Shown: in pieces, positions 49,938 to 64,000 of the stretch | Position numbering within the stretch: position 1 is the first letter of the stretch | Layout of the letters: the number at the start of each line of letters is the position of its first letter | NCBI GenBank assembly: GCA_021791545.1 | Contig: JAJYWL010000016.1 | Location: forward strand, 9,533-73,532 | Direction: 5' to 3' | Length of the DNA: 64,000 bases | DNA from: a bacterium | GTDB taxonomy: Bacteria; Patescibacteriota; Microgenomatia; Levybacterales; UBA12049 | Notes under the pieces: generated by a model | The model's database searches: none | Told to the model about the DNA's origin: nothing | The model's input: only the letters and a program-made list of their open reading frames with translations | Program-made: the position numbers and the translations under genes

Positions 49938-51719
49938 ATGGCTGAAACGAACTTAAATTTTGCCAAAATCGTTGCCAACCCCAATGTCTATTCCTGGTCT
50001 CAAGCATATAACGCAGGAAAGCTATTTTCAGTACTTTCGCTTGAGAAATTTGATCAGACAGGCGAAGAAAAGGATTTCTTAGGTGTCTTAGGAAAAGAAA
50101 TCTTTAACACTCTTGAACAGGAATTCTTTACTCTGGAATCAAAAAATCTCGAATCAATAAAAAGTGCCATAAAAACTACTGCGGAAAAAATCCCGGACGG
50201 AGTTAATTGTTCTTTTGTAATAGGATATATTGCCGGAAACATCCTCTACATATTCATCTTGGGAAACGGAAAAGTAGATATCAAAAGAAACGATAAATTG
50301 GGAAACCTCCTCTCCTCCAAAGACAGCAGCAAAGAAAACATAAAAGCTTCCTCAGGATATCTTGAAGAAGGAGATTATATTTTCCTTGAAACGGACCAAT
50401 TCGCAAATATAATTTCTGCGGAAACCCTATCCTCCCACCTTGAGAACAAAAAACCCGAAGAGGTATCGGAAGAGATTGCTCCAATACTTCATGAAAGAGA
50501 AGAAGCTGCGGCAGCAGCCATAATCTTGGAATATAAAGGAGAAGAAAAACCTTCAATCCTTACCGCTCCCATCGAAGAACTGGAAAAACAAGCAGAAAAC
50601 CCCTTCGGAATAGAAAGTTCTCAAGAAAAATCTTCCTCAAAATTCTTGGATTCTGCTAAAACTTTTGCCCTGGGTCTTATATCTAAAATTAAGACTCCAT
50701 CTATTAAGGGCTTCAGTTTCTCGGGCGGCAGAAAAATAATTTTAATAGCTGCAGTCATAATTGTCGCAGTTTTTGTATTCAGCATCTATAAAGGACTTCA
50801 AAAACAACAAAACGATAAATATGAAGCGACTTTCCAGGCTTTTTATCCTCAGGCTCAGAAAAAATATGACGAAGGACAAAGTTTAATGGATCTAAACCAA
50901 AGTTTGGCAAAAGACAGTTTCCAGCAGGCGCAAAAAATCCTCAACGACAATAAAGACAAGTTCCCCGCAAAATCTTCTCAGGAAAAACAGATTCAGGATC
51001 TTCTTTCAAAAGTAAACTCTGCCTTAGGCGGAAGCGGAACTAGCAATCAATCAAATCAGGTAACCCCTGAAGAAGTAGATTCAAGCGTAAGTCCTATTCT
51101 GGCAACAGAGATCAAATATAACTCTTCTTCATACTTTACACAGGACGATCAAAATATATACTTCATAGATTCTGCAGGAATTGAATCTGTAAGTAAACAA
51201 GGAGGAACCAAAAAGAAAATAATAGACTCAAGTGAACTTCCGAAGAATGTAGGCGGCCTTTCTGTATACTACGGCAATTTCTATGTAGTAGATAAAGACG
51301 CAAACCAAATAACCAAATTTATTGCGGCAACCGACGGCTTTGGAAAAACCGACTACCTTAAAGGGACAAACAACATTTCAAACTCGATTTCGATAGCAAT
51401 CGACAGCGACTTATGGCTTCTCCAAAAATCCGGCTCACTTTTACAATTTACCAAAGGAAATAATGATAACTTAAATGTATCCGGGCTTTCCACTCCTCTT
51501 TCATCCCCAACCAGAGTATCTACGACACTAGGAGAAAATAATGTATATATATTGGACAATGGAAATTCAAGAATGGTAGTCTTGGATAAAAAAGGAAACT
51601 TTGTTAATCAGTATCAAGCAGAAATATTAAAACAAGCTAAAGACTTTGAAGTATCGGAAGCAAGTAAAAGAGCTTTTGTTCTCTCCGGAGGAAAAGTCTA
51701 CCAGATAAACCTTAAGTAA
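49938..51719 (+). CDS. Hypothetical bitopic protein with a cytoplasmic N-domain, one transmembrane helix and an extracytoplasmic repeat (beta-propeller-like) C-domain
   Basis: Transmembrane helix KIILIAAVIIVAVFVFSIY at mid-protein. The C-terminal repeats are NIYFIDSAG, FYVVDKDANQITKF and NVYILDNGNSRMVVLDKKGNF. Confidence 0.45.
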   Translation: MAETNLNFAKIVANPNVYSWSQAYNAGKLFSVLSLEKFDQTGEEKDFLGVLGKEIFNTLEQEFFTLESKNLESIKSAIKTTAEKIPDGVNCSFVIGYIAGNILYIFILGNGKVDIKRNDKLGNLLSSKDSSKENIKASSGYLEEGDYIFLETDQFANIISAETLSSHLENKKPEEVSEEIAPILHEREEAAAAAIILEYKGEEKPSILTAPIEELEKQAENPFGIESSQEKSSSKFLDSAKTFALGLISKIKTPSIKGFSFSGGRKIILIAAVIIVAVFVFSIYKGLQKQQNDKYEATFQAFYPQAQKKYDEGQSLMDLNQSLAKDSFQQAQKILNDNKDKFPAKSSQEKQIQDLLSKVNSALGGSGTSNQSNQVTPEEVDSSVSPILATEIKYNSSSYFTQDDQNIYFIDSAGIESVSKQGGTKKKIIDSSELPKNVGGLSVYYGNFYVVDKDANQITKFIAATDGFGKTDYLKGTNNISNSISIAIDSDLWLLQKSGSLLQFTKGNNDNLNVSGLSTPLSSPTRVSTTLGENNVYILDNGNSRMVVLDKKGNFVNQYQAEILKQAKDFEVSEASKRAFVLSGGKVYQINLK

Positions 51720-55681: not shown

Positions 55682-56341
55682 TTATCTTCCTCCCACTAAC
55701 CTTAAAAAGACTATTAGAGCAATATCCATTAAAAGAGGCATTAGAAGAAATAAATCTCCTTTTTTAAAAATTTCCTGTGCATTTTGAGAGGAAAATAAAT
55801 TTCCTAGATATGTAAGTATTGATGGATTAAAAAACAATATTACTAGGAAGATAAGGATAAGAGCGACAAATAATGTAAATGTTCCTTCTATATCTTTTTT
55901 ACTTGAAAACATAGTATTCCCTACCTCTAAAATTACAAAAAAAGAAATTAAATATGCTAGAAAACTATTAAAACTGTTATTTTGAATGTAATAGATTGTT
56001 CCAAAAACAATAACAGAACCAATAATTACAGGAGCAACGCCAATTAATGCCATTCTTATAAAATCAGTCCTTTCTGTTTGGACACTTCCCAACCTCAATC
56101 CTCCATCTACGGTTTTGGGTAAAATATCTATATCTCCAGTTTTTACGAATAAAACTCCTGCTGTAAGAAAATGAGATAGTTCATGAACTATGACTCCGGG
56201 AAGAAAAAATAGGGAAATAAGATAAATTGAAACTTTGGTACTTTTTGTTGCCTTCAAAAATACTTTCATTAATGATCTTGATAAAAGTTTTGCTAGGAAA
56301 AAAAGAAGAATAAATTCAAAAATAAATAAAAGAGGAAACAT
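55682..56341 (-). CDS. Polytopic membrane protein with an HExxH motif (putative intramembrane zinc metalloprotease)
   Basis: VIVHELSHFLTAG lies within a transmembrane helix. About six hydrophobic segments. Confidence 0.45.
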   Translation of the reverse strand: MFPLLFIFEFILLFFLAKLLSRSLMKVFLKATKSTKVSIYLISLFFLPGVIVHELSHFLTAGVLFVKTGDIDILPKTVDGGLRLGSVQTERTDFIRMALIGVAPVIIGSVIVFGTIYYIQNNSFNSFLAYLISFFVILEVGNTMFSSKKDIEGTFTLFVALILIFLVILFFNPSILTYLGNLFSSQNAQEIFKKGDLFLLMPLLMDIALIVFLRLVGGR

Positions 56342-58083: not shown

Positions 58084-58101
58084 ATTTTACTTCCTTATGT
58101 G

Positions 58102-58188
58102 CGGAGAGGGTGAGATTTGAACTCACGGTTGCCTTTCGACAACAGCGGTTTTCGAAACCGCCGCACTAGGCCACTATGCGACCTCTCC
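58102..58188 (-). tRNA. tRNA-Ser(CGA)
   Basis: The reverse complement is GGAGAGGTCGCATAGTGGCCTAGTGCGGCGGTTTCGAAAACCGC...GTGAGTTCAAATCTCACCCTCTCCG. The anticodon loop is TTCGAAA, with a long variable arm. Confidence 0.75.
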
Positions 58189-58193
58189 GTTTG

Positions 58194-58266
58194 CGTGCCC
58201 GAGAGGAGTCGAACCTCCAACCGCCTGGACCGCAACCAAGTGTTCTATCCATTGAACTACGGGCAC
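58194..58266 (-). tRNA. tRNA-Arg with the unusual anticodon GCG (as read)
   Basis: The reverse complement is GTGCCCGTAGTTCAATGGATAGAACACTTGGTTGCGGTCCAGGCGGTTGGAGGTTCGACTCCTCTCGGGCACG. A standard 73-nt cloverleaf, with anticodon stem CTTGG/CCAGG (one G-U pair) and loop TTGCGGT. Confidence 0.55.
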
Positions 58267-58350
58267 ACTCTGACTTGTATTTTACTTTAAAACCTTTCTT
58301 TTAACAAACTTGACAACTTTTTTAAAATAGCTCAAACTAAACTTAAGCAT

Positions 58351-60441
58351 ATGAAATTTTCTGTCCGCCTGGCCCTTGTTTTAGGAACGATACTATTTCT
58401 TTTCCCCTTTTTCAAAGTAAATACTTTTGCTCAAATTTCAAACACACCTACCCCTGCAGTTCAAAATTATACTACTCCTGACACAAACTCCAATGTTCCC
58501 AAGAATATGCACACCCTAACCCAGAGTCTTGTAATAGAAATACTATCTTCGTTTGTTTGCCAACTGGGGGGAATTGATCCTATGAACAAAAATCAGGAAT
58601 GTTTAGGGGTTGATCCAAACACAGGCAAAATTGGTTTTGTCAAAAATGGAGGAGGCCTAGTCGGAGTCGCACAAAAAATGATTGTTAGTACTTATTCCCT
58701 ACCTATTCATACCGGTGATTATATTGCCTATGTAGGACGAAATTTCGGAATAACCAAACCCACCTATGCTGCCGATCCAAATTCGAGCTTAGGCTTACAA
58801 AGCCTTTCACCCTTAATTAATCTTTGGGTAGCTTTTAGAAATATTGTTTATCTTCTTTTTGTTGTAATCTTCACAGTTATAGGTTTAGCAATAATGCTGA
58901 GGGTGCGAATAGACCCAAGAACCGTAATGACAATTCAAAACCAAATACCTAAACTTATAATAGGCATCGTTCTTGTTACATTCTCTTTTGCATTATCCGG
59001 ATTTCTTGTAGACCTTATGTATGTTTCCTCTTACCTTGGAATAGGAGTTGTGGCTTCAGCAGACAAATCCGGGAATATTTCTCCAAACATAGGCGTGCAA
59101 TTGATGACCGCCACAAACCCCATACATGCTGCAGATATAGCAACAATGGGAGGAAAATATGATGGAAACAACCCAGCAAAATCATCAAATGATTTAGGTT
59201 TGCAAACCGGTCTTATCGGAATCGCTGTGCTACCTGCTAATGCTGCTGGTCATTTCTTGGGACCACTTTTTGCAAATCCAGTAGGATCTCTACTTATGGC
59301 TTTTGTTATGGGAGTACTGGGACACACTGCGGGACAAAGCATAGGAACAATCGTAGGGGCACTTTTAGGAGCGGGCGTAGCAATCTTAGGAATCCTTGGG
59401 GCGCCAGTCACGGGGGGAGCAAGTTTAATAGTAACCGGAGCTCTTGTAGGAGGAACCTTAGGAGCAGCTATGGGAACTACGGTAGGGGGTATTTGGGGAG
59501 CAACAGACCCTGCGAGTGCAGCAGGAGGCTTTATATCGATAATTGCTTATCTTATTATCCTTATAGCAATTCTATATTCTCTTTATAAACTTTGGTTCCA
59601 GTTAATAATCGCCTACATAAGTATCTTTATAGATGTTATTTTCTCACCTTTCTGGATAGCTGCTGGATTAATACCTGGAAGTAAAATAGGATTTGGCTCA
59701 TGGCTGAGAGACATTATTTCAAACCTTTCTGTTTTCCCCATCACATTATTAATGTTTCTCCTCTCAAAAGTAATTATAGATGCTATGGGACCATGCCAAG
59801 GAGGTACTGTTGCGGGTTTTGCATGTACTAATCCTCAGAATTTTTTTGTTGCTCCATTAATCGGCAATCCTTCTTTCCCCAATGAAATTGTTGCAATAAT
59901 AGGCCTTGGCTTCATACTCTCCACACCAGAAGTAGTTAAAATAGTAAAGACAGCTCTTAAAGCACCTCAAACTCCTCTCGGTGGACCTGCCTCTGCAATA
60001 GGGTTTGCTGCTAAGATACCTGCTGCCTTTGGAAAAGGTACCTGGGGAAGTATAATGAAAAGAGATCAATATGGTCGTCCTTTAGGAGGAGGAGCATTCC
60101 TTTGGGACGAAGGAAAAGGGATGATAAGAAGAGGTGCGGTAAGAGTAGTTCCTGGTTACAGAACGGTAGAGAACATAAGACAACGTATAGAGGACAGGAA
60201 TGCAAACAGAGGGGCAGCACGAGTTGCACCAGCAGCAGGAGGCGGAACACCACCTCCACCTCCTCCAGCAGCAGGAGGAGCACCAGCAGCAGGAGGCGGA
60301 ACACCACCTCCACCTCCTCCAGCAGCAGGAGGAGCAGCACCAGCAGGAGCAGGCTGGAGACAAGAAGGACGACAAAGAGCAGATAGAATAATTAACAGAA
60401 TGACACCCAGGGTAAATAATCCCTTTAGAAGAAGACCCTAA
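58351..60441 (+). CDS. Polytopic membrane protein, VirB6/TrbL-like architecture, with a C-terminal Pro/Gly-rich repeat tail
   Basis: Signal peptide, a roughly 100-aa extracytoplasmic region and at least six Gly-rich transmembrane helices. The C-terminal tail carries two copies of AAGGGTPPPPPPAAGG. Confidence 0.45.
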   Translation: MKFSVRLALVLGTILFLFPFFKVNTFAQISNTPTPAVQNYTTPDTNSNVPKNMHTLTQSLVIEILSSFVCQLGGIDPMNKNQECLGVDPNTGKIGFVKNGGGLVGVAQKMIVSTYSLPIHTGDYIAYVGRNFGITKPTYAADPNSSLGLQSLSPLINLWVAFRNIVYLLFVVIFTVIGLAIMLRVRIDPRTVMTIQNQIPKLIIGIVLVTFSFALSGFLVDLMYVSSYLGIGVVASADKSGNISPNIGVQLMTATNPIHAADIATMGGKYDGNNPAKSSNDLGLQTGLIGIAVLPANAAGHFLGPLFANPVGSLLMAFVMGVLGHTAGQSIGTIVGALLGAGVAILGILGAPVTGGASLIVTGALVGGTLGAAMGTTVGGIWGATDPASAAGGFISIIAYLIILIAILYSLYKLWFQLIIAYISIFIDVIFSPFWIAAGLIPGSKIGFGSWLRDIISNLSVFPITLLMFLLSKVIIDAMGPCQGGTVAGFACTNPQNFFVAPLIGNPSFPNEIVAIIGLGFILSTPEVVKIVKTALKAPQTPLGGPASAIGFAAKIPAAFGKGTWGSIMKRDQYGRPLGGGAFLWDEGKGMIRRGAVRVVPGYRTVENIRQRIEDRNANRGAARVAPAAGGGTPPPPPPAAGGAPAAGGGTPPPPPPAAGGAAPAGAGWRQEGRQRADRIINRMTPRVNNPFRRRP
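60226..60345 (+). repeat. Tandem direct repeat, 54-bp unit in about 2.2 copies, encoding the Pro-rich tail
   Basis: gcaccagcagcaggaggcggaacaccacctccacctcctccagcagcaggagga recurs at 60226 and 60280. Confidence 0.7.
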
Positions 60442-60485
60442 GCTATTTAATAAATGATGAGGAAGGTTTAAAAAAGAATTCTAAT

Positions 60486-63400
60486 TTAACTTACCTTATA
60501 TATCTGGCCAATATTTCCCAAAAGAGCTTTAAGTGCTTCCGCAAGTCCCCCTCCTACTGCTCCCCCGCTTGATTGAAGGAATAAACCATAAGTAGTGGTA
60601 TGAGTTTCTCTCCTCATTTTTTGTATTTCTTGTTCTGAATAATAATGCTTCGTGCGCAAGAAATCCCAAATAGCCTCCATTTGTACCATATTAAATCTGG
60701 GTTGATCACTGGTTACATTTCTATGAGATTCTATTTCTGCCTCTACAATATAGGCAAAGGCATCTTTCCAAAGAAGTTCTCTTATATCAGACTCCTGAAT
60801 TCTTGCAACATCGATATCAAACCCAGGACTAAGTTCTTTTCCAGTCCTAGGATCTCTTGTCCCTTCGATTCTCCATATTTTTGGCTGATAACTGGCTGGA
60901 GGTTCAAATAGAGTCTTTGAATCCTTTTCTTCATATCTATCTTTGATTTTTCTTAATATTTCAGCTCCAAAAAGATTTGCAACAATAGGAAGATCTATTG
61001 CATCGTCTACTGTTTTCCCATCAGAGCCTGCGTGTTTTTCCCAGGTCCTTATTGTCTTACCGTAATCTGTTCCTCCCCAAGTCGAAAGCCAATATCTTAC
61101 TGCTTTTTCAACCCCATCTACCATTTTATTTGCTTTCTCATAATCTATAATTGCCCTTCCTGTACCGGGTTCAAAGGTAAGAAAGTCTTGAAAATTAAGT
61201 TGATTATGATCAACTAGAAACTCGTGAAGGTGAAATCCTGAAGCAACATGATTCGAAGCAAAATTACCCATTATATGTTGCTGAAATCTTATACCCCTGT
61301 CTTTTCCATACAAATCCCTAATAGAAGTGTTAAGATTGCTTAAATCATTCCCTTCTCCCCCCTGAATTGCTTCCAGAAGAGTTCTTCCCTCCGTGTCTCT
61401 TACTCCTTCAAAAAAATTAAGACCTAATCTTTTAAGCCCAAGTACGTTAAAAATATTTCCATAAGAAGCATTTCTTTTATCAGCCATCTGCCTTATTCTG
61501 TATTCCTGAGAATTTATAATCTTTGTCCATGCATCGAAACCTACTGCTCCTGTATCATTCTTTGCAGCTAAGCCAGTCCATTTAGTCATAGAAAAAGCCC
61601 AGTTTTCTGCATATTGAGCTTCTCTTCTGTCTAGCCCCGTTTGCTCCATTATTGCCCTTACCATCCTCTCTCTTACTTGGGTGATTACAGCCTCGTCCTT
61701 ATTTGGCCCTGGTCCTGTAAATACATTTATATATTCCATAAAGTCTTTTGGGGGATTTCCGTTTTCATCCAAAATGAGCTTACCATCTCTAAACCATTTA
61801 CTCGAGTCGTAATGGCGTCCTGGACCTTTTACTCCTGTAAAAGTTTTTTCTACTTCCTCATCCTCGTCCCATCCAGTATATTTTTCTGAAAAAAGAGATG
61901 AATCTGGAAATATTTTTTGTAGAGAATCGTAATCGTAGATGTAATAATATGCCATTAAAGCTTTTCTTACTGCCTGGCCAACATCGGAATTCTTGTCGAC
62001 CCTGTCTTTTATTTCCTCTCCTTGATGTAATTCTAATCCAGGAACCTTATCCGCATCCCTCATCGATGGCATGCTTAGAATAAATTCCATAAAGTTAGAC
62101 CTGGTAAACATGTTTGTTCCATATATCTTTGATATTGTTTCTAAAAGCTTATGTTCATCAAACTGAATGTTCACATATTCTACATGGTTATTCCTTGATG
62201 TATTAAATAGAAATGCCTCTGTTAACAATTGTTGTCTTAATTTTTCATAGTCTTTATTTTTATGATAAGTCGCCTCTGATTGAGCTATCATCGGCTTCTT
62301 TTTATCAATATTCCCATGCTTATCTATATTTGGAACAATCTTTTTTACATTTCTTTTTTCAGTAAAATAACTTCCAGTAAGAACCATTTCTTGTAGACTT
62401 ATCTGACTCCATCTTGATTTAACCGTTATCTGACTAAAGAAATCAACAGTAGAATTAGGAGAAAATTCATGTATTTCTATCATTCTTTTTCTTACCCATG
62501 CCATAAAATGAGCCTTATTAACTTTTCCCTCTCTACTCAAAAGCTCATTTTCTCCCCCAGTCTTCCACTCCTCGTTTTCTGAATTCATTATGAGAGCACA
62601 TAGGTCTTCCAAAGATGCAGGAATGTCGGGAAGAGCACCCTCAAGGCTATAGTAATGGGAAATTACCCTTTGAGAAAATGGAGGCTTTCCTCCAAAAACT
62701 TCACTTTTAATCCCATTAAGATCCCGATCTTTTCTTAATCTCTCCAATCTCTTTACGATTGGTTCATAGTCTCTTTCATAAGCATCTTTTGAAATCGCTC
62801 CTGTTGTTTCAAGTGCCTTGGCGAAAAAGATAAGATTATCTACCTCTGTGTCTACCTCATTTGTATAAGATGTTGCACTATCAATAACGTCCATGCTCTC
62901 TCTATAATTTTGTTGGAAAGTTTTAATACCCTCTTCTGCTTCAGGTTGATCCTCAGAAGTTCCTGTTCCTGATTTTCTAGTAGCCCTGACTATATCCTCC
63001 GTAGTGCTCGTGGCTTCTCTTGCCATTTCGTCATTTTGTCTTTTTAATTCTTGGTATTCCGGATCATCTTCATCATCATGGTCATCATTTTCCCCACCAT
63101 CTTCATCGTCGGGATTGTCGTCGGGTGTCTCATCGTCCTCATTATTGTCATCATTTTCTTCATCTGGAGAGGATGACTTAACATCATCCTTTTCCTCAAT
63201 TGCTTCAGCTTGCGAAGAATTATCAAATTGATCTCTTTTTTTTCTTAAAATTTCCATTAACTCAGAAAGGTTTGATTCCTTAATTGTTTCTTTATCAACT
63301 CCATTTTCAAGAAGGATTCTTTCTAAGTTGCTCGTCATAGCAAATGGAACCCCTCCGCTCCCAATCTTATCTAAAAGACTTCTTGCTTCGGCTGTTATGT

Positions 63401-63785
63401 CTTGCACGCCTTCATTTTCTGCTCCATTTATTTCTGACTCGCGTGGATTTTCCGATTCTTCTTCAGGAGGAGTATCTTCTGCCCCAGAAATTGGAAGAAC
63501 TCCCATTTCTATTAATTCTAGTGTTGTTCTTCTTTCGTCTACGGATAAGCTTTCCCAGGGGCGTATCCTTTCCCAAGCTTCCCTGGAGGCCCTCTTAGCT
63601 TCTTCACTTACAATTTTTTCTCTAGGACTTTGTCCTTCATTATTCATCGGTGTTTCACCACCACCTGGTTCTGGCATAAAAATTTCGCCTTCTCTTTCCA
63701 GAGTAGAAGAATTGGAGTTTGATGTCAACTCATCCAGGCTCAACTGATTTCCCCTGAAATTTCTTGGGTCCATTTCATTTTTCAT
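60486..63785 (-). CDS. Giant hypothetical protein (1099 aa) with an N-terminal acidic low-complexity region
   Basis: A long uninterrupted ORF with an acidic stretch EEKDDVKSSSPDEENDDNNEDDETPDDNPDDEDGGENDDHDDEDD. No known catalytic motif recognised. Confidence 0.55.
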   Translation of the reverse strand: MKNEMDPRNFRGNQLSLDELTSNSNSSTLEREGEIFMPEPGGGETPMNNEGQSPREKIVSEEAKRASREAWERIRPWESLSVDERRTTLELIEMGVLPISGAEDTPPEEESENPRESEINGAENEGVQDITAEARSLLDKIGSGGVPFAMTSNLERILLENGVDKETIKESNLSELMEILRKKRDQFDNSSQAEAIEEKDDVKSSSPDEENDDNNEDDETPDDNPDDEDGGENDDHDDEDDPEYQELKRQNDEMAREATSTTEDIVRATRKSGTGTSEDQPEAEEGIKTFQQNYRESMDVIDSATSYTNEVDTEVDNLIFFAKALETTGAISKDAYERDYEPIVKRLERLRKDRDLNGIKSEVFGGKPPFSQRVISHYYSLEGALPDIPASLEDLCALIMNSENEEWKTGGENELLSREGKVNKAHFMAWVRKRMIEIHEFSPNSTVDFFSQITVKSRWSQISLQEMVLTGSYFTEKRNVKKIVPNIDKHGNIDKKKPMIAQSEATYHKNKDYEKLRQQLLTEAFLFNTSRNNHVEYVNIQFDEHKLLETISKIYGTNMFTRSNFMEFILSMPSMRDADKVPGLELHQGEEIKDRVDKNSDVGQAVRKALMAYYYIYDYDSLQKIFPDSSLFSEKYTGWDEDEEVEKTFTGVKGPGRHYDSSKWFRDGKLILDENGNPPKDFMEYINVFTGPGPNKDEAVITQVRERMVRAIMEQTGLDRREAQYAENWAFSMTKWTGLAAKNDTGAVGFDAWTKIINSQEYRIRQMADKRNASYGNIFNVLGLKRLGLNFFEGVRDTEGRTLLEAIQGGEGNDLSNLNTSIRDLYGKDRGIRFQQHIMGNFASNHVASGFHLHEFLVDHNQLNFQDFLTFEPGTGRAIIDYEKANKMVDGVEKAVRYWLSTWGGTDYGKTIRTWEKHAGSDGKTVDDAIDLPIVANLFGAEILRKIKDRYEEKDSKTLFEPPASYQPKIWRIEGTRDPRTGKELSPGFDIDVARIQESDIRELLWKDAFAYIVEAEIESHRNVTSDQPRFNMVQMEAIWDFLRTKHYYSEQEIQKMRRETHTTTYGLFLQSSGGAVGGGLAEALKALLGNIGQIYKVS

Positions 63786-63849
63786 AATCCCATTTTATTT
63801 TCATATCCCTCAGTTCGCTTGATATTTGCTTTACAAAAAAATTACAATA

Positions 63850-64000
63850 TGATTACCATGAAAGAACGTTTTGACTCACTTTATCCTGAAGAAACAAGAT
63901 TTTCTGAAATAGAAAAAATACTTTCTTTTGCAAAAGAAGGGAATTCCTGTCAGGTTATTGGAATTCCCGGAACAGGGAGATCAAATATATTAGGTCTCTT
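63850..64000 (+). CDS. Partial ORF, 5' end only, with a possible P-loop NTPase motif
   Basis: MITMKERFDSLYPEETRFSEIEKILSFAKEGNSCQVIGIPGTGRSNILGL... It is preceded by TTGATA, 18 nt, then TACAAT. The Walker-A-like GIPGTGRS has Arg in place of Lys. Confidence 0.35.

Follow-up and report, generated by a model that had tools for sequence, protein, structure and literature searches.

A probable VirB6-like membrane protein and its convergent giant partner at the border of a type IV secretion locus in Levybacteria

The stretch of DNA analysed here (the window) comprises 64,000 nucleotides of contig JAJYWL010000016.1 (GenBank assembly GCA_021791545.1, positions 9,533 to 73,532 of the forward strand). 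Near its right end lie two convergent genes, one for a 696-aa polytopic membrane protein (M696) and one for a 1099-aa acidic protein (G1099), which adjoin a type IV secretion system (T4SS) cluster. In the one genetically tractable member of the Patescibacteria, from the Saccharibacteria, the T4SS is essential for epibiotic growth. The two open reading frames (ORFs) are exactly as described in a first-pass annotation of this DNA; they stand tail to tail, 44 bp apart, and are followed by the beginning of a third gene:

58351-60441, plus strand: M696 gene, encoding a 696-aa probable VirB6/TrbL-like polytopic membrane subunit
60486-63785, minus strand: G1099 gene, encoding a 1099-aa acidic orphan giant protein, convergent with M696
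63858-64000, plus strand: 5′ end of a regulator gene, which encodes a 444-aa product and runs off the edge of the window

The third gene had been noted as a possible P-loop gene. A P-loop-like motif, GIPGTGRS, is indeed present at the N-terminus of its product, but the only significant domain in the 444 aa is a C-terminal winged helix of the OmpR/PhoB type (Trans_reg_C, E = 5e-19). To the left of M696 the genes are of the housekeeping kind, namely two tRNAs, NUDIX hydrolases, a P-type ATPase, SmpB and penicillin-binding proteins. Because this flank is housekeeping and the right flank is a T4SS cluster, M696 marks the border of the T4SS locus.

The T4SS cluster beyond the window

The first-pass annotation stated that no other T4SS genes flank M696. 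This holds inside the window, but not just beyond it, where pilins, PrgI, a TraC-like protein and VirB4 are encoded. The rightward extension was read from contigs that carry the M696 homologue P0001 and an identical giant protein, and that come from essentially the same strain: over 15.6 kb, they differ from the window by 5 mismatches and a single 54-bp indel (99.98% identity). Past G1099, the genes follow in this order, up to dnaN:

Regulator, 444 aa (Trans_reg_C), first gene of the T4SS cluster, beyond the giant gene
Four VirB2-like pilin genes (T4SS_pilin, PF18895), after the regulator
PrgI/VirB3-like protein, 378 aa (PF12666), after the pilins
TraC/TrsD-like protein, 209 aa (PF26593), after PrgI
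VirB4 ATPase, 596 aa (P-loop_TraG, 3e-26), after the TraC/TrsD-like gene
485-aa bitopic protein, positions 1236-2693 of contig L083, minus strand, downstream of VirB4; HExxH and soluble lytic transglycosylase (SLT)-like motifs, no Pfam match
168-aa bitopic protein, positions 717-1223 of contig L083, minus strand, after the 485-aa protein and before dnaN

Extending the sequence rightwards, as had been proposed, therefore leads to a T4SS cluster with VirB4 and not only to housekeeping genes. The 485-aa protein contains the motif HILVHESAH and, towards its C-terminus, AYCESRY...GLVQMNP, which resembles a lytic transglycosylase; judged by eye, it is likely a VirB1 analogue. The 485-aa and 168-aa proteins would probably fill VirB1-like and VirB8-like roles that are missed by current profiles. 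M696 is the sole polytopic membrane protein in the locus, and neither a type IV coupling protein (T4CP) nor a relaxase is encoded among the cluster genes that were read.

Candidate Phyla Radiation (CPR) members are described, in Wang et al. 2023 (PMC10633639), Quinonero-Coronel et al. 2025 (PMC12102498) and PMC12857230, as having origin-proximal T4SSs that resemble the FATA class of mating-pair formation (MPF) systems, with pilin arrays and no relaxase. The present locus has this composition. It shares VirB4 with a TrsD-like protein, PrgI/VirB3 and a divergent VirB2-like array with the T4SS of Southlakia epibionticum (SEML1_0006-0019; PMC10633639). The lack of a relaxase and T4CP in the cluster and the position beside dnaN near the origin are likewise those of Patescibacteria T4SSs (PMC10633639, PMC12102498). 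At its right end, the window reaches the left border of a chromosomal, origin-proximal T4SS locus in the genome of an ultra-small member of the Levybacteria (Microgenomatia, Patescibacteria). The suggestion that the two convergent genes could belong to a secretion apparatus of a CPR bacterium is supported: a T4SS cluster adjoins, and almost all named relatives are labelled Levybacteria or Patescibacteria.

The same arrangement is found in related genomes. A scan of GTDB species representatives gave at least 565 loci that encode the M696 family, of which 80 were fetched. Downstream sequence is available for 80 loci (78 of the fetched ones together with L001 and L002), and in all 80 a large ORF on the opposite strand, of 770-1593 aa where complete, follows the M696 homologue. 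Its stop codon lies between -7 and +81 bp from that of the M696 gene, with one exception at 339 bp. Of the 53 loci that extend 8 kb or more downstream, 51 encode at least two pilins and 45 encode the regulator; where the 10-kb flank is long enough, genes for PrgI, the TraC-like protein and VirB4 come next. The order of membrane gene, convergent giant gene, and then regulator and pilins on the strand of the membrane gene is near-universal across the 80 species-level Levybacteria genomes. This synteny rejects a chance neighbourhood; both M696 and the giant gene firmly belong with the T4SS, and membership of M696 in the system is near certain.

A cluster-specific winged-helix regulator and a giant convergent partner were not found in the available text of the published accounts (PMC12102498, PMC10633639 and PMC12857230). 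Both always accompany the M696 family and are additions to the parts list. The machine and its CPR context have already been described, and M696 and the giant protein are its newly recognised parts in the Levybacteria lineage; as this type of machine was known, the advance is an incremental one and not one of concept.

Some loci depart from the common plan upstream of the membrane gene. In L007 (CAVRKE010000002.1), a second M696 paralogue of 808 aa precedes the main copy at a distance of a few kb and is itself preceded by a pilin-like gene, and pilin genes are also encoded upstream of M696 in L025 and L079.

Architecture of M696 and its relation to VirB6

M696 begins with a Sec-signal-peptide-like sequence, MKFSVRLALVLGTILFLFPFFKVNTFA (aa 1-27), which ends in FA and is followed by Q. 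At this putative cleavage site, A27 is invariant in the family and Q28 is present in at least 90% of its members. A conserved ectodomain follows (aa 28-150), with two invariant cysteines, C70 and C84; together with the loop KIDPRTVMTIQNQIPK, it is the best-conserved part of the family. Between residues 150 and 537, hydropathy and the AlphaFold2 (AF2) model indicate at least seven hydrophobic helices, where at least five are expected of a VirB6/TrbL protein. The long helices of the model span residues 149-182, 189-237, 288-350, 359-430, 448-479 and 510-537. The predicted local distance difference test score (pLDDT) is 64 overall, which is mediocre, and 70-94 in the membrane core. The first-pass annotation, which had reported a signal peptide and at least six helices and had quoted a Gly-rich string, was accurate on all of these. 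Its Gly-rich helices correspond to a variable insert at about aa 300-385 of the transmembrane bundle (aa 150-537), which is unconserved and of low pLDDT; a TrbL-like core covers about aa 309-531. Finally, the tail (aa 538-696) is basic, with a net charge of +16, and disordered (pLDDT <50). Across the family, the part after the last helix varies from 17 to 292 aa and is rich in Gly, Ala, Arg and Pro, unconserved, and polyproline-containing in some lineages only.

Similarity to VirB6/TrbL, which had been proposed from this architecture, has found support and is rated probable. TrbL alone among Pfam families recurs in a set of 77 species-level orthologues, with nine matches (E <= 0.1) and one further match to TrbL_5. 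No transporter family recurs among them, so an unrelated transporter is rejected, and no profile match assigns the membrane protein to one. Two of 42 orthologues score above the gathering threshold of Pfam TrbL (PF04610; 32 vs 25.9 bits), over a region equivalent to M696 aa 309-524. In an hhalign comparison of the family with nine VirB6 proteins of the MPF-T class, including TrwI of R388, M696 418-531 was aligned with TrwI 166-266 over 94 columns (P = 4e-4, probability 35%). In this alignment, conserved residues of both families coincide, namely P433/P181, F448/F196, W451/W199 and P526/P261. W451 is found in at least 90% of the M696 orthologues, and its partner W199 is invariant in the VirB6 alignment; a core Trp is reportedly essential for the function of Agrobacterium tumefaciens VirB6 (Judd et al. 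2005). Six runs with re-trimmed alignments returned the same region (P = 0.001-0.008), and reversed-sequence controls gave P = 0.3-0.6. The four best matches of the AF2 model in a Foldseek search of the PDB are all TrwI/VirB6 chains of R388, with non-significant E values of 0.19-0.46.

The genomic setting agrees with these signals. As is expected of VirB6, M696 is encoded in a T4SS cluster with VirB4, and this is conserved across related genomes. The locus otherwise has no polytopic subunit for the VirB6 role, which is filled in nearly all T4SS classes (PMC12102498). The same survey calls VirB6 homologues 'scarce' in Microgenomatia, 'suggesting extreme sequence divergence'.

Several observations weigh against this assignment. 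M696 itself has no sequence or profile match in Pfam, NCBIfam, PHROG or the PDB, and only about 5-12% of its orthologues touch TrbL. The hhalign probability against VirB6 is only 5-35% across runs, and a larger local alignment with the option -M first made the signal weaker, not stronger. Comparisons of the family with single sequences of TrwI and of PrgH from pCF10 were negative or uninformative; PrgH gave a probability of 0.2%, a weak test with one sequence only. The structural model is mediocre, as mentioned above. In addition, the M696 gene is convergent to the T4SS operon and not within it.

It has to be considered whether M696 might be associated with the T4SS without being a VirB6 homologue. 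It would then be a lineage-specific membrane platform that serves, for example, the VirB2-like pilus or contact with the host through its ectodomain, and the TrbL signal would come from convergence of helices bearing Gly, Pro and Trp. That all profile and fold signals are sub-significant would suit such a platform, as would the lack of a VirB6 counterpart for the best-conserved segments, the ectodomain with its invariant C70 and C84 and the loop. Nevertheless, TrbL recurs in independent orthologues above a curated Pfam threshold, the conserved residues of both families fall in register, and the reversed controls score far lower. Moreover, the cluster would be left without the polytopic subunit of nearly all T4SS classes (PMC12102498). 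This alternative is consequently regarded as rather unlikely. Because several independent weak signals agree, homology to VirB6 is considered probable, and M696 is more plausibly a highly diverged 'extended' VirB6-like polytopic subunit of the T4SS.

Compared with VirB6/TrbL proteins (PF04610; TrwI of R388, PDB 7O3V/8RTD), M696 is likewise polytopic and encoded with a VirB4-containing cluster, some of its orthologues pass the Pfam threshold, and TrwI chains head its Foldseek matches, although not significantly. It also has a C-terminal helical core in which conserved Pro, Phe, Trp and Pro residues align with those of MPF-T VirB6. In contrast to these proteins, M696 is about twice as long, with a cleavable-looking signal peptide, a conserved 120-aa Cys-containing ectodomain, a variable insert similar to a glycine zipper, and a basic low-complexity tail of 160 aa; it also falls below every profile threshold, and its gene is convergent at the edge of the cluster. 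According to PMC12857230, which summarises Alvarez-Martinez and Christie 2009, 'extended VirB6' proteins combine at least five hydrophobic helices with additional large hydrophilic regions, and this description suits M696 too. The extra parts of M696, however, are an ectodomain at the N-terminus and a disordered tail, where those proteins have a folded hydrophilic domain in a central or C-proximal position. The VirB6 analogues of Gram-positive bacteria (PrgH of pCF10, ConG, TcpH and Orf15 of Tn916) are also polytopic subunits, of monoderm MPF-FATA systems, and several are large; no similarity between the M696 family and the single PrgH sequence compared was detected.

If M696 is VirB6-like, it would be exported N-out by means of its Sec signal peptide and would expose a conserved ectodomain of the disulfide type. 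Its helical bundle would join PrgI/VirB3 and VirB4 in the membrane translocon, and the protein would end as a basic, disordered cytoplasmic tail; we infer this topology, with the N-terminus out and the tail in the cytoplasm. A family present in at least 565 species-level loci would then be the probable missing VirB6 and would complete the Microgenomatia parts list.

The tail of M696 contains a tandem repeat, which had been recognised at first pass as a 54-bp unit encoding two perfect peptide copies. Tandem Repeats Finder (TRF) confirmed it:

60214-60349, plus strand: 54-bp in-frame tandem repeat (TRF: 2.5 copies, 93% matches, score 237)
60226-60279 and 60280-60333, plus strand: two perfectly identical 18-aa units, APAAGGGTPPPPPPAAGG (aa 626-643 and 644-661)

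The two perfect copies of AAGGGTPPPPPPAAGG are at aa 628-643 and 646-661. Variation in copy number had been suggested as a check, and two alleles of 696 and 678 aa, one unit apart, are indeed present in public assemblies. The shorter allele, the homologue P0001, is M696 minus a clean 18 aa and is otherwise identical, and each allele encodes a full-length protein. The duplication is recent, as both 54-bp units are identical, and because the unit comprises 18 codons, slippage alters the length of the tail only and cannot switch expression off. The repeat would thus be a recent, lineage-specific, in-frame expansion of a low-complexity tail, one that changes tail length and not expression. The difference between the alleles could instead be an artefact of assembly. 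Two independent Logan contigs (L084 and L085) end at the same base inside the repeat (window position 60307), and contig ends inside such repeats are expected for short-k assemblies; since Logan contigs break here, an assembly effect is in principle conceivable.

The perfect identity of the units, and their difference by exactly one copy between 99.98%-identical assemblies, might also be taken as signs of a contingency locus, where phase or antigenic variation has functional consequences. This is very unlikely. In phase variation, a change of copy number shifts the frame or the promoter spacing, and here the unit is inside the coding region and its 18 codons never cause a frameshift. Furthermore, a cytoplasmic location is predicted for the tail (net charge +16), which is unconserved in the family, and only two alleles have been found, at a repeat where short-read assemblers break or collapse.

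The giant protein and its embedded promoter-like element

The N-terminal third of G1099 is acidic and disordered; a helical body follows, and the C-terminal helix is amphipathic. The first 290 residues of the protein have a net charge of -50 and include the Asp/Glu/Asn-rich run reported at first pass:

63021-63200, minus strand: Asp/Glu/Asn-rich run of G1099 (about aa 196-255; pLDDT <50)

There are 37 D/E/N within 60 residues of this run and 28 D/E within 50. Also as reported, no recognisable domain is present: G1099 and 41 diverse relatives have no match in Pfam, NCBIfam, PHROG or the PDB other than coiled-coil and low-complexity noise. Neither a Sec signal nor an N-terminal hydrophobic segment was found in G1099. 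Structure prediction, which had been recommended for this protein, was run, but the model (pLDDT 51) is too poor to interpret, and its Foldseek matches, such as exportins and the ryanodine receptor (RyR), are meaningless for that reason.

The family is small and diverges rapidly. An exhaustive HMMER search recovered 312 representatives among 1.84 billion proteins, and the best 150 of these 312 are mostly 750-1650 aa long. A third search with the giant-protein alignment added nothing to the family, and the probable reason is that its candidate list was taken up by acidic low-complexity words. Only 49 of 82 loci could be linked with G1099 by a local iterated hidden Markov model. Giants of more than 700 aa, 77 in all, fall into group T, which includes G1099 (47 members), and groups F0 (17), F1 (12) and F2 (1). 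F0 and F1 are related (hhalign 99.6%), and matches of group T with either are short and of low probability, the best covering 42 N-terminal columns of F1 at 73%. Thus, the syntenic giants diverge far faster than M696, which keeps 30-50% identity. In the F groups, 28 of 30 members end in a hydrophobic helix followed by Lys/Arg, similar to a tail anchor; in contrast, the window's G1099 has only the amphipathic helix, with a maximum hydropathy of 0.94.

In the arrangement described above, G1099 is a T4SS-associated partner, invariably encoded tail to tail with the VirB6-like gene and head to head with the cluster regulator; any physical or functional link between M696 and G1099 is inferred. Two roles can be envisaged for it, both tentatively. 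In one, it would be moved by the T4SS as a substrate or effector, or would determine contact with the host, and its rapid divergence would have arisen from an arms race with the host bacteria. The fixed place beside the T4SS in 80 of 80 loci is consistent with such a role, as are the small family without a known domain and the fact that giant families barely recognise each other at the M696 identities given above. So are the lack of a Sec signal, the long acidic disordered N-terminus and the C-terminal hydrophobic or amphipathic helix with Lys/Arg. Wang et al. (PMC10633639) propose that CPR T4SSs may export proteins. By analogy only, T4SS effectors and polymorphic effector loci are similar, as they can be large, fast-diverging, devoid of a Sec signal, located beside secretion genes and basic or hydrophobic at the C-terminus. 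Unlike them, the giant has no toxin/immunity module or known translocation signal and occurs as a single copy. Furthermore, no toxin or enzyme domain is recognisable, the model gives no help, secretion would be argued from analogy, and a strictly single-copy, always-present gene suits a structural role as well.

The other role, held just as tentatively, is that of a structural or cytoplasmic part of the machine, either a membrane-tethered scaffold or a substitute coupling protein, whose acidic region possibly docks onto the basic tail of M696. The first 290 residues of the giant and the tail are opposite in charge (-50 vs +16), tail-to-tail pairing is obligatory, the locus has no T4CP or relaxase, and the end of most F-group members resembles a tail anchor. 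By contrast, G1099 has neither a Walker A/B ATPase match nor an N-terminal anchor, as would be expected of a coupling protein, and no homology to VirD4 or TcpA. In addition, the C-terminus of the window's copy is not truly hydrophobic, and so fast a divergence would be unusual for a core subunit. Were the giant a cargo, it would be the first candidate substrate of a CPR T4SS; more generally, it and the M696 ectodomain would be specific candidates for things that the machine binds or transports.

Promoter-like sequences bear on where the giant gene begins. Three were identified around these genes:

58310-58338, plus strand: M696 promoter, TTGACA-N17-CAAACT, 12 nt before the ATG
63819-63848, plus strand: regulator promoter-like site, TTGATA-N18-TACAAT
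63675-63728, minus strand: promoter-like element in the 5′ coding region of the giant gene, with TTGACA (63728-63723), a 17-nt spacer, TACTCT (63705-63700), a Shine-Dalgarno (SD)-like stretch and the ATG of Met37 (63677-63675)

TTGAC(A/T)-N17/18-(C/T)AnACT is found upstream of most of 40 orthologous M696 genes, with exact TTGACA in 25. Locally, promoters seem to follow the consensus TTGACA-N17/18-(C/T)AnACT, with only 8-12 nt between it and the start codon. Because its promoter is only 12 nt before the ATG, the M696 mRNA would be nearly leaderless, and the regulator mRNA would be so too. The reverse complement of the regulator motif, AATATCAAGC, recurs at the same position in related loci. Within the regulator promoter there is, in addition, a direct repeat, TTGATA-N5-TTTACA, which resembles binding sites of the OmpR/PhoB family.

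The third element coincides with an N-terminal pattern shared by the giants, MKE...(E)LT...G(D/N/E)IFM (related loci L003-L082). Its Leu-Thr is encoded by TTG ACA in all 30 cases with the strict motif, and 62 of 76 giant genes carry TTGACA exactly and in frame; elsewhere in these genes, TTG ACA accounts for only 6.2% of Leu-Thr pairs. TAnACT or TAnnCT follows 17-18 nt later, whatever the frame, and then a GGAGA-like stretch and the ATG of Met37. As Leu-Thr is always TTGACA here, the motif is rejected as a purely protein-level secretion signal. In view of the nucleotide-exact TTGACA, the spacing and the form shared with the M696 promoter, the element is best read as a putative sigma-70 promoter of the local consensus with a ribosome-binding site, placed inside the annotated 5′ end.

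Consequently, the giant gene may start, or may also start, at Met37. Upstream of Met37, the frame begins with the conserved MKE and has a median open length of 42 codons, compared with 6 for the two other frames. Two nested start sites may account for this, or the frame may be kept open for another reason. On the evidence of sequence, nested promoters may give two isoforms of the giant. That it is a dedicated cargo or host-contact determinant made in two such isoforms, a long one from the MKE start and a short one from Met37, is unlikely.

The left flank and related genomes

Four further features to the left of M696 deserve mention:

58101-58188, minus strand: tRNA-Ser(CGA), between the NUDIX genes and M696
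58193-58266, minus strand: tRNA-Arg(GCG), between the NUDIX genes and M696
55682-56341, minus strand: 219-aa polytopic protein with a HELSH (HExxH) motif and no Pfam match, 2 kb left of M696
49938-51719, plus strand: 593-aa protein with no significant domain; its synteny is kept in 22 related loci

A tRNA-like sequence is also located upstream of M696 in several related loci. The 219-aa protein is regarded as a candidate protease for pilin processing; ten or more related genomes encode it inside the T4SS cluster, directly after the pilin array (L005, L009, L010, L024, L030, L039, L048, L062, L063 and L073). The 593-aa protein has sub-threshold matches to a contractile-injection tape-measure protein, LPD5 and NHL repeats.

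The homologues of M696 number more than 600. Nearly all named ones are labelled Patescibacteria or Levybacteria, and for this reason a CPR origin of the window is supported by sequence relationships. Many metagenome-assembled genomes with the Levybacteria-specific locus are titled 'uncultured Gammaproteobacteria bacterium' (third-party annotation (TPA) binchicken/SRP co-assemblies), one is titled Eisenbacteria and one Acidiferrales; these titles are evidently placeholder or wrong labels.

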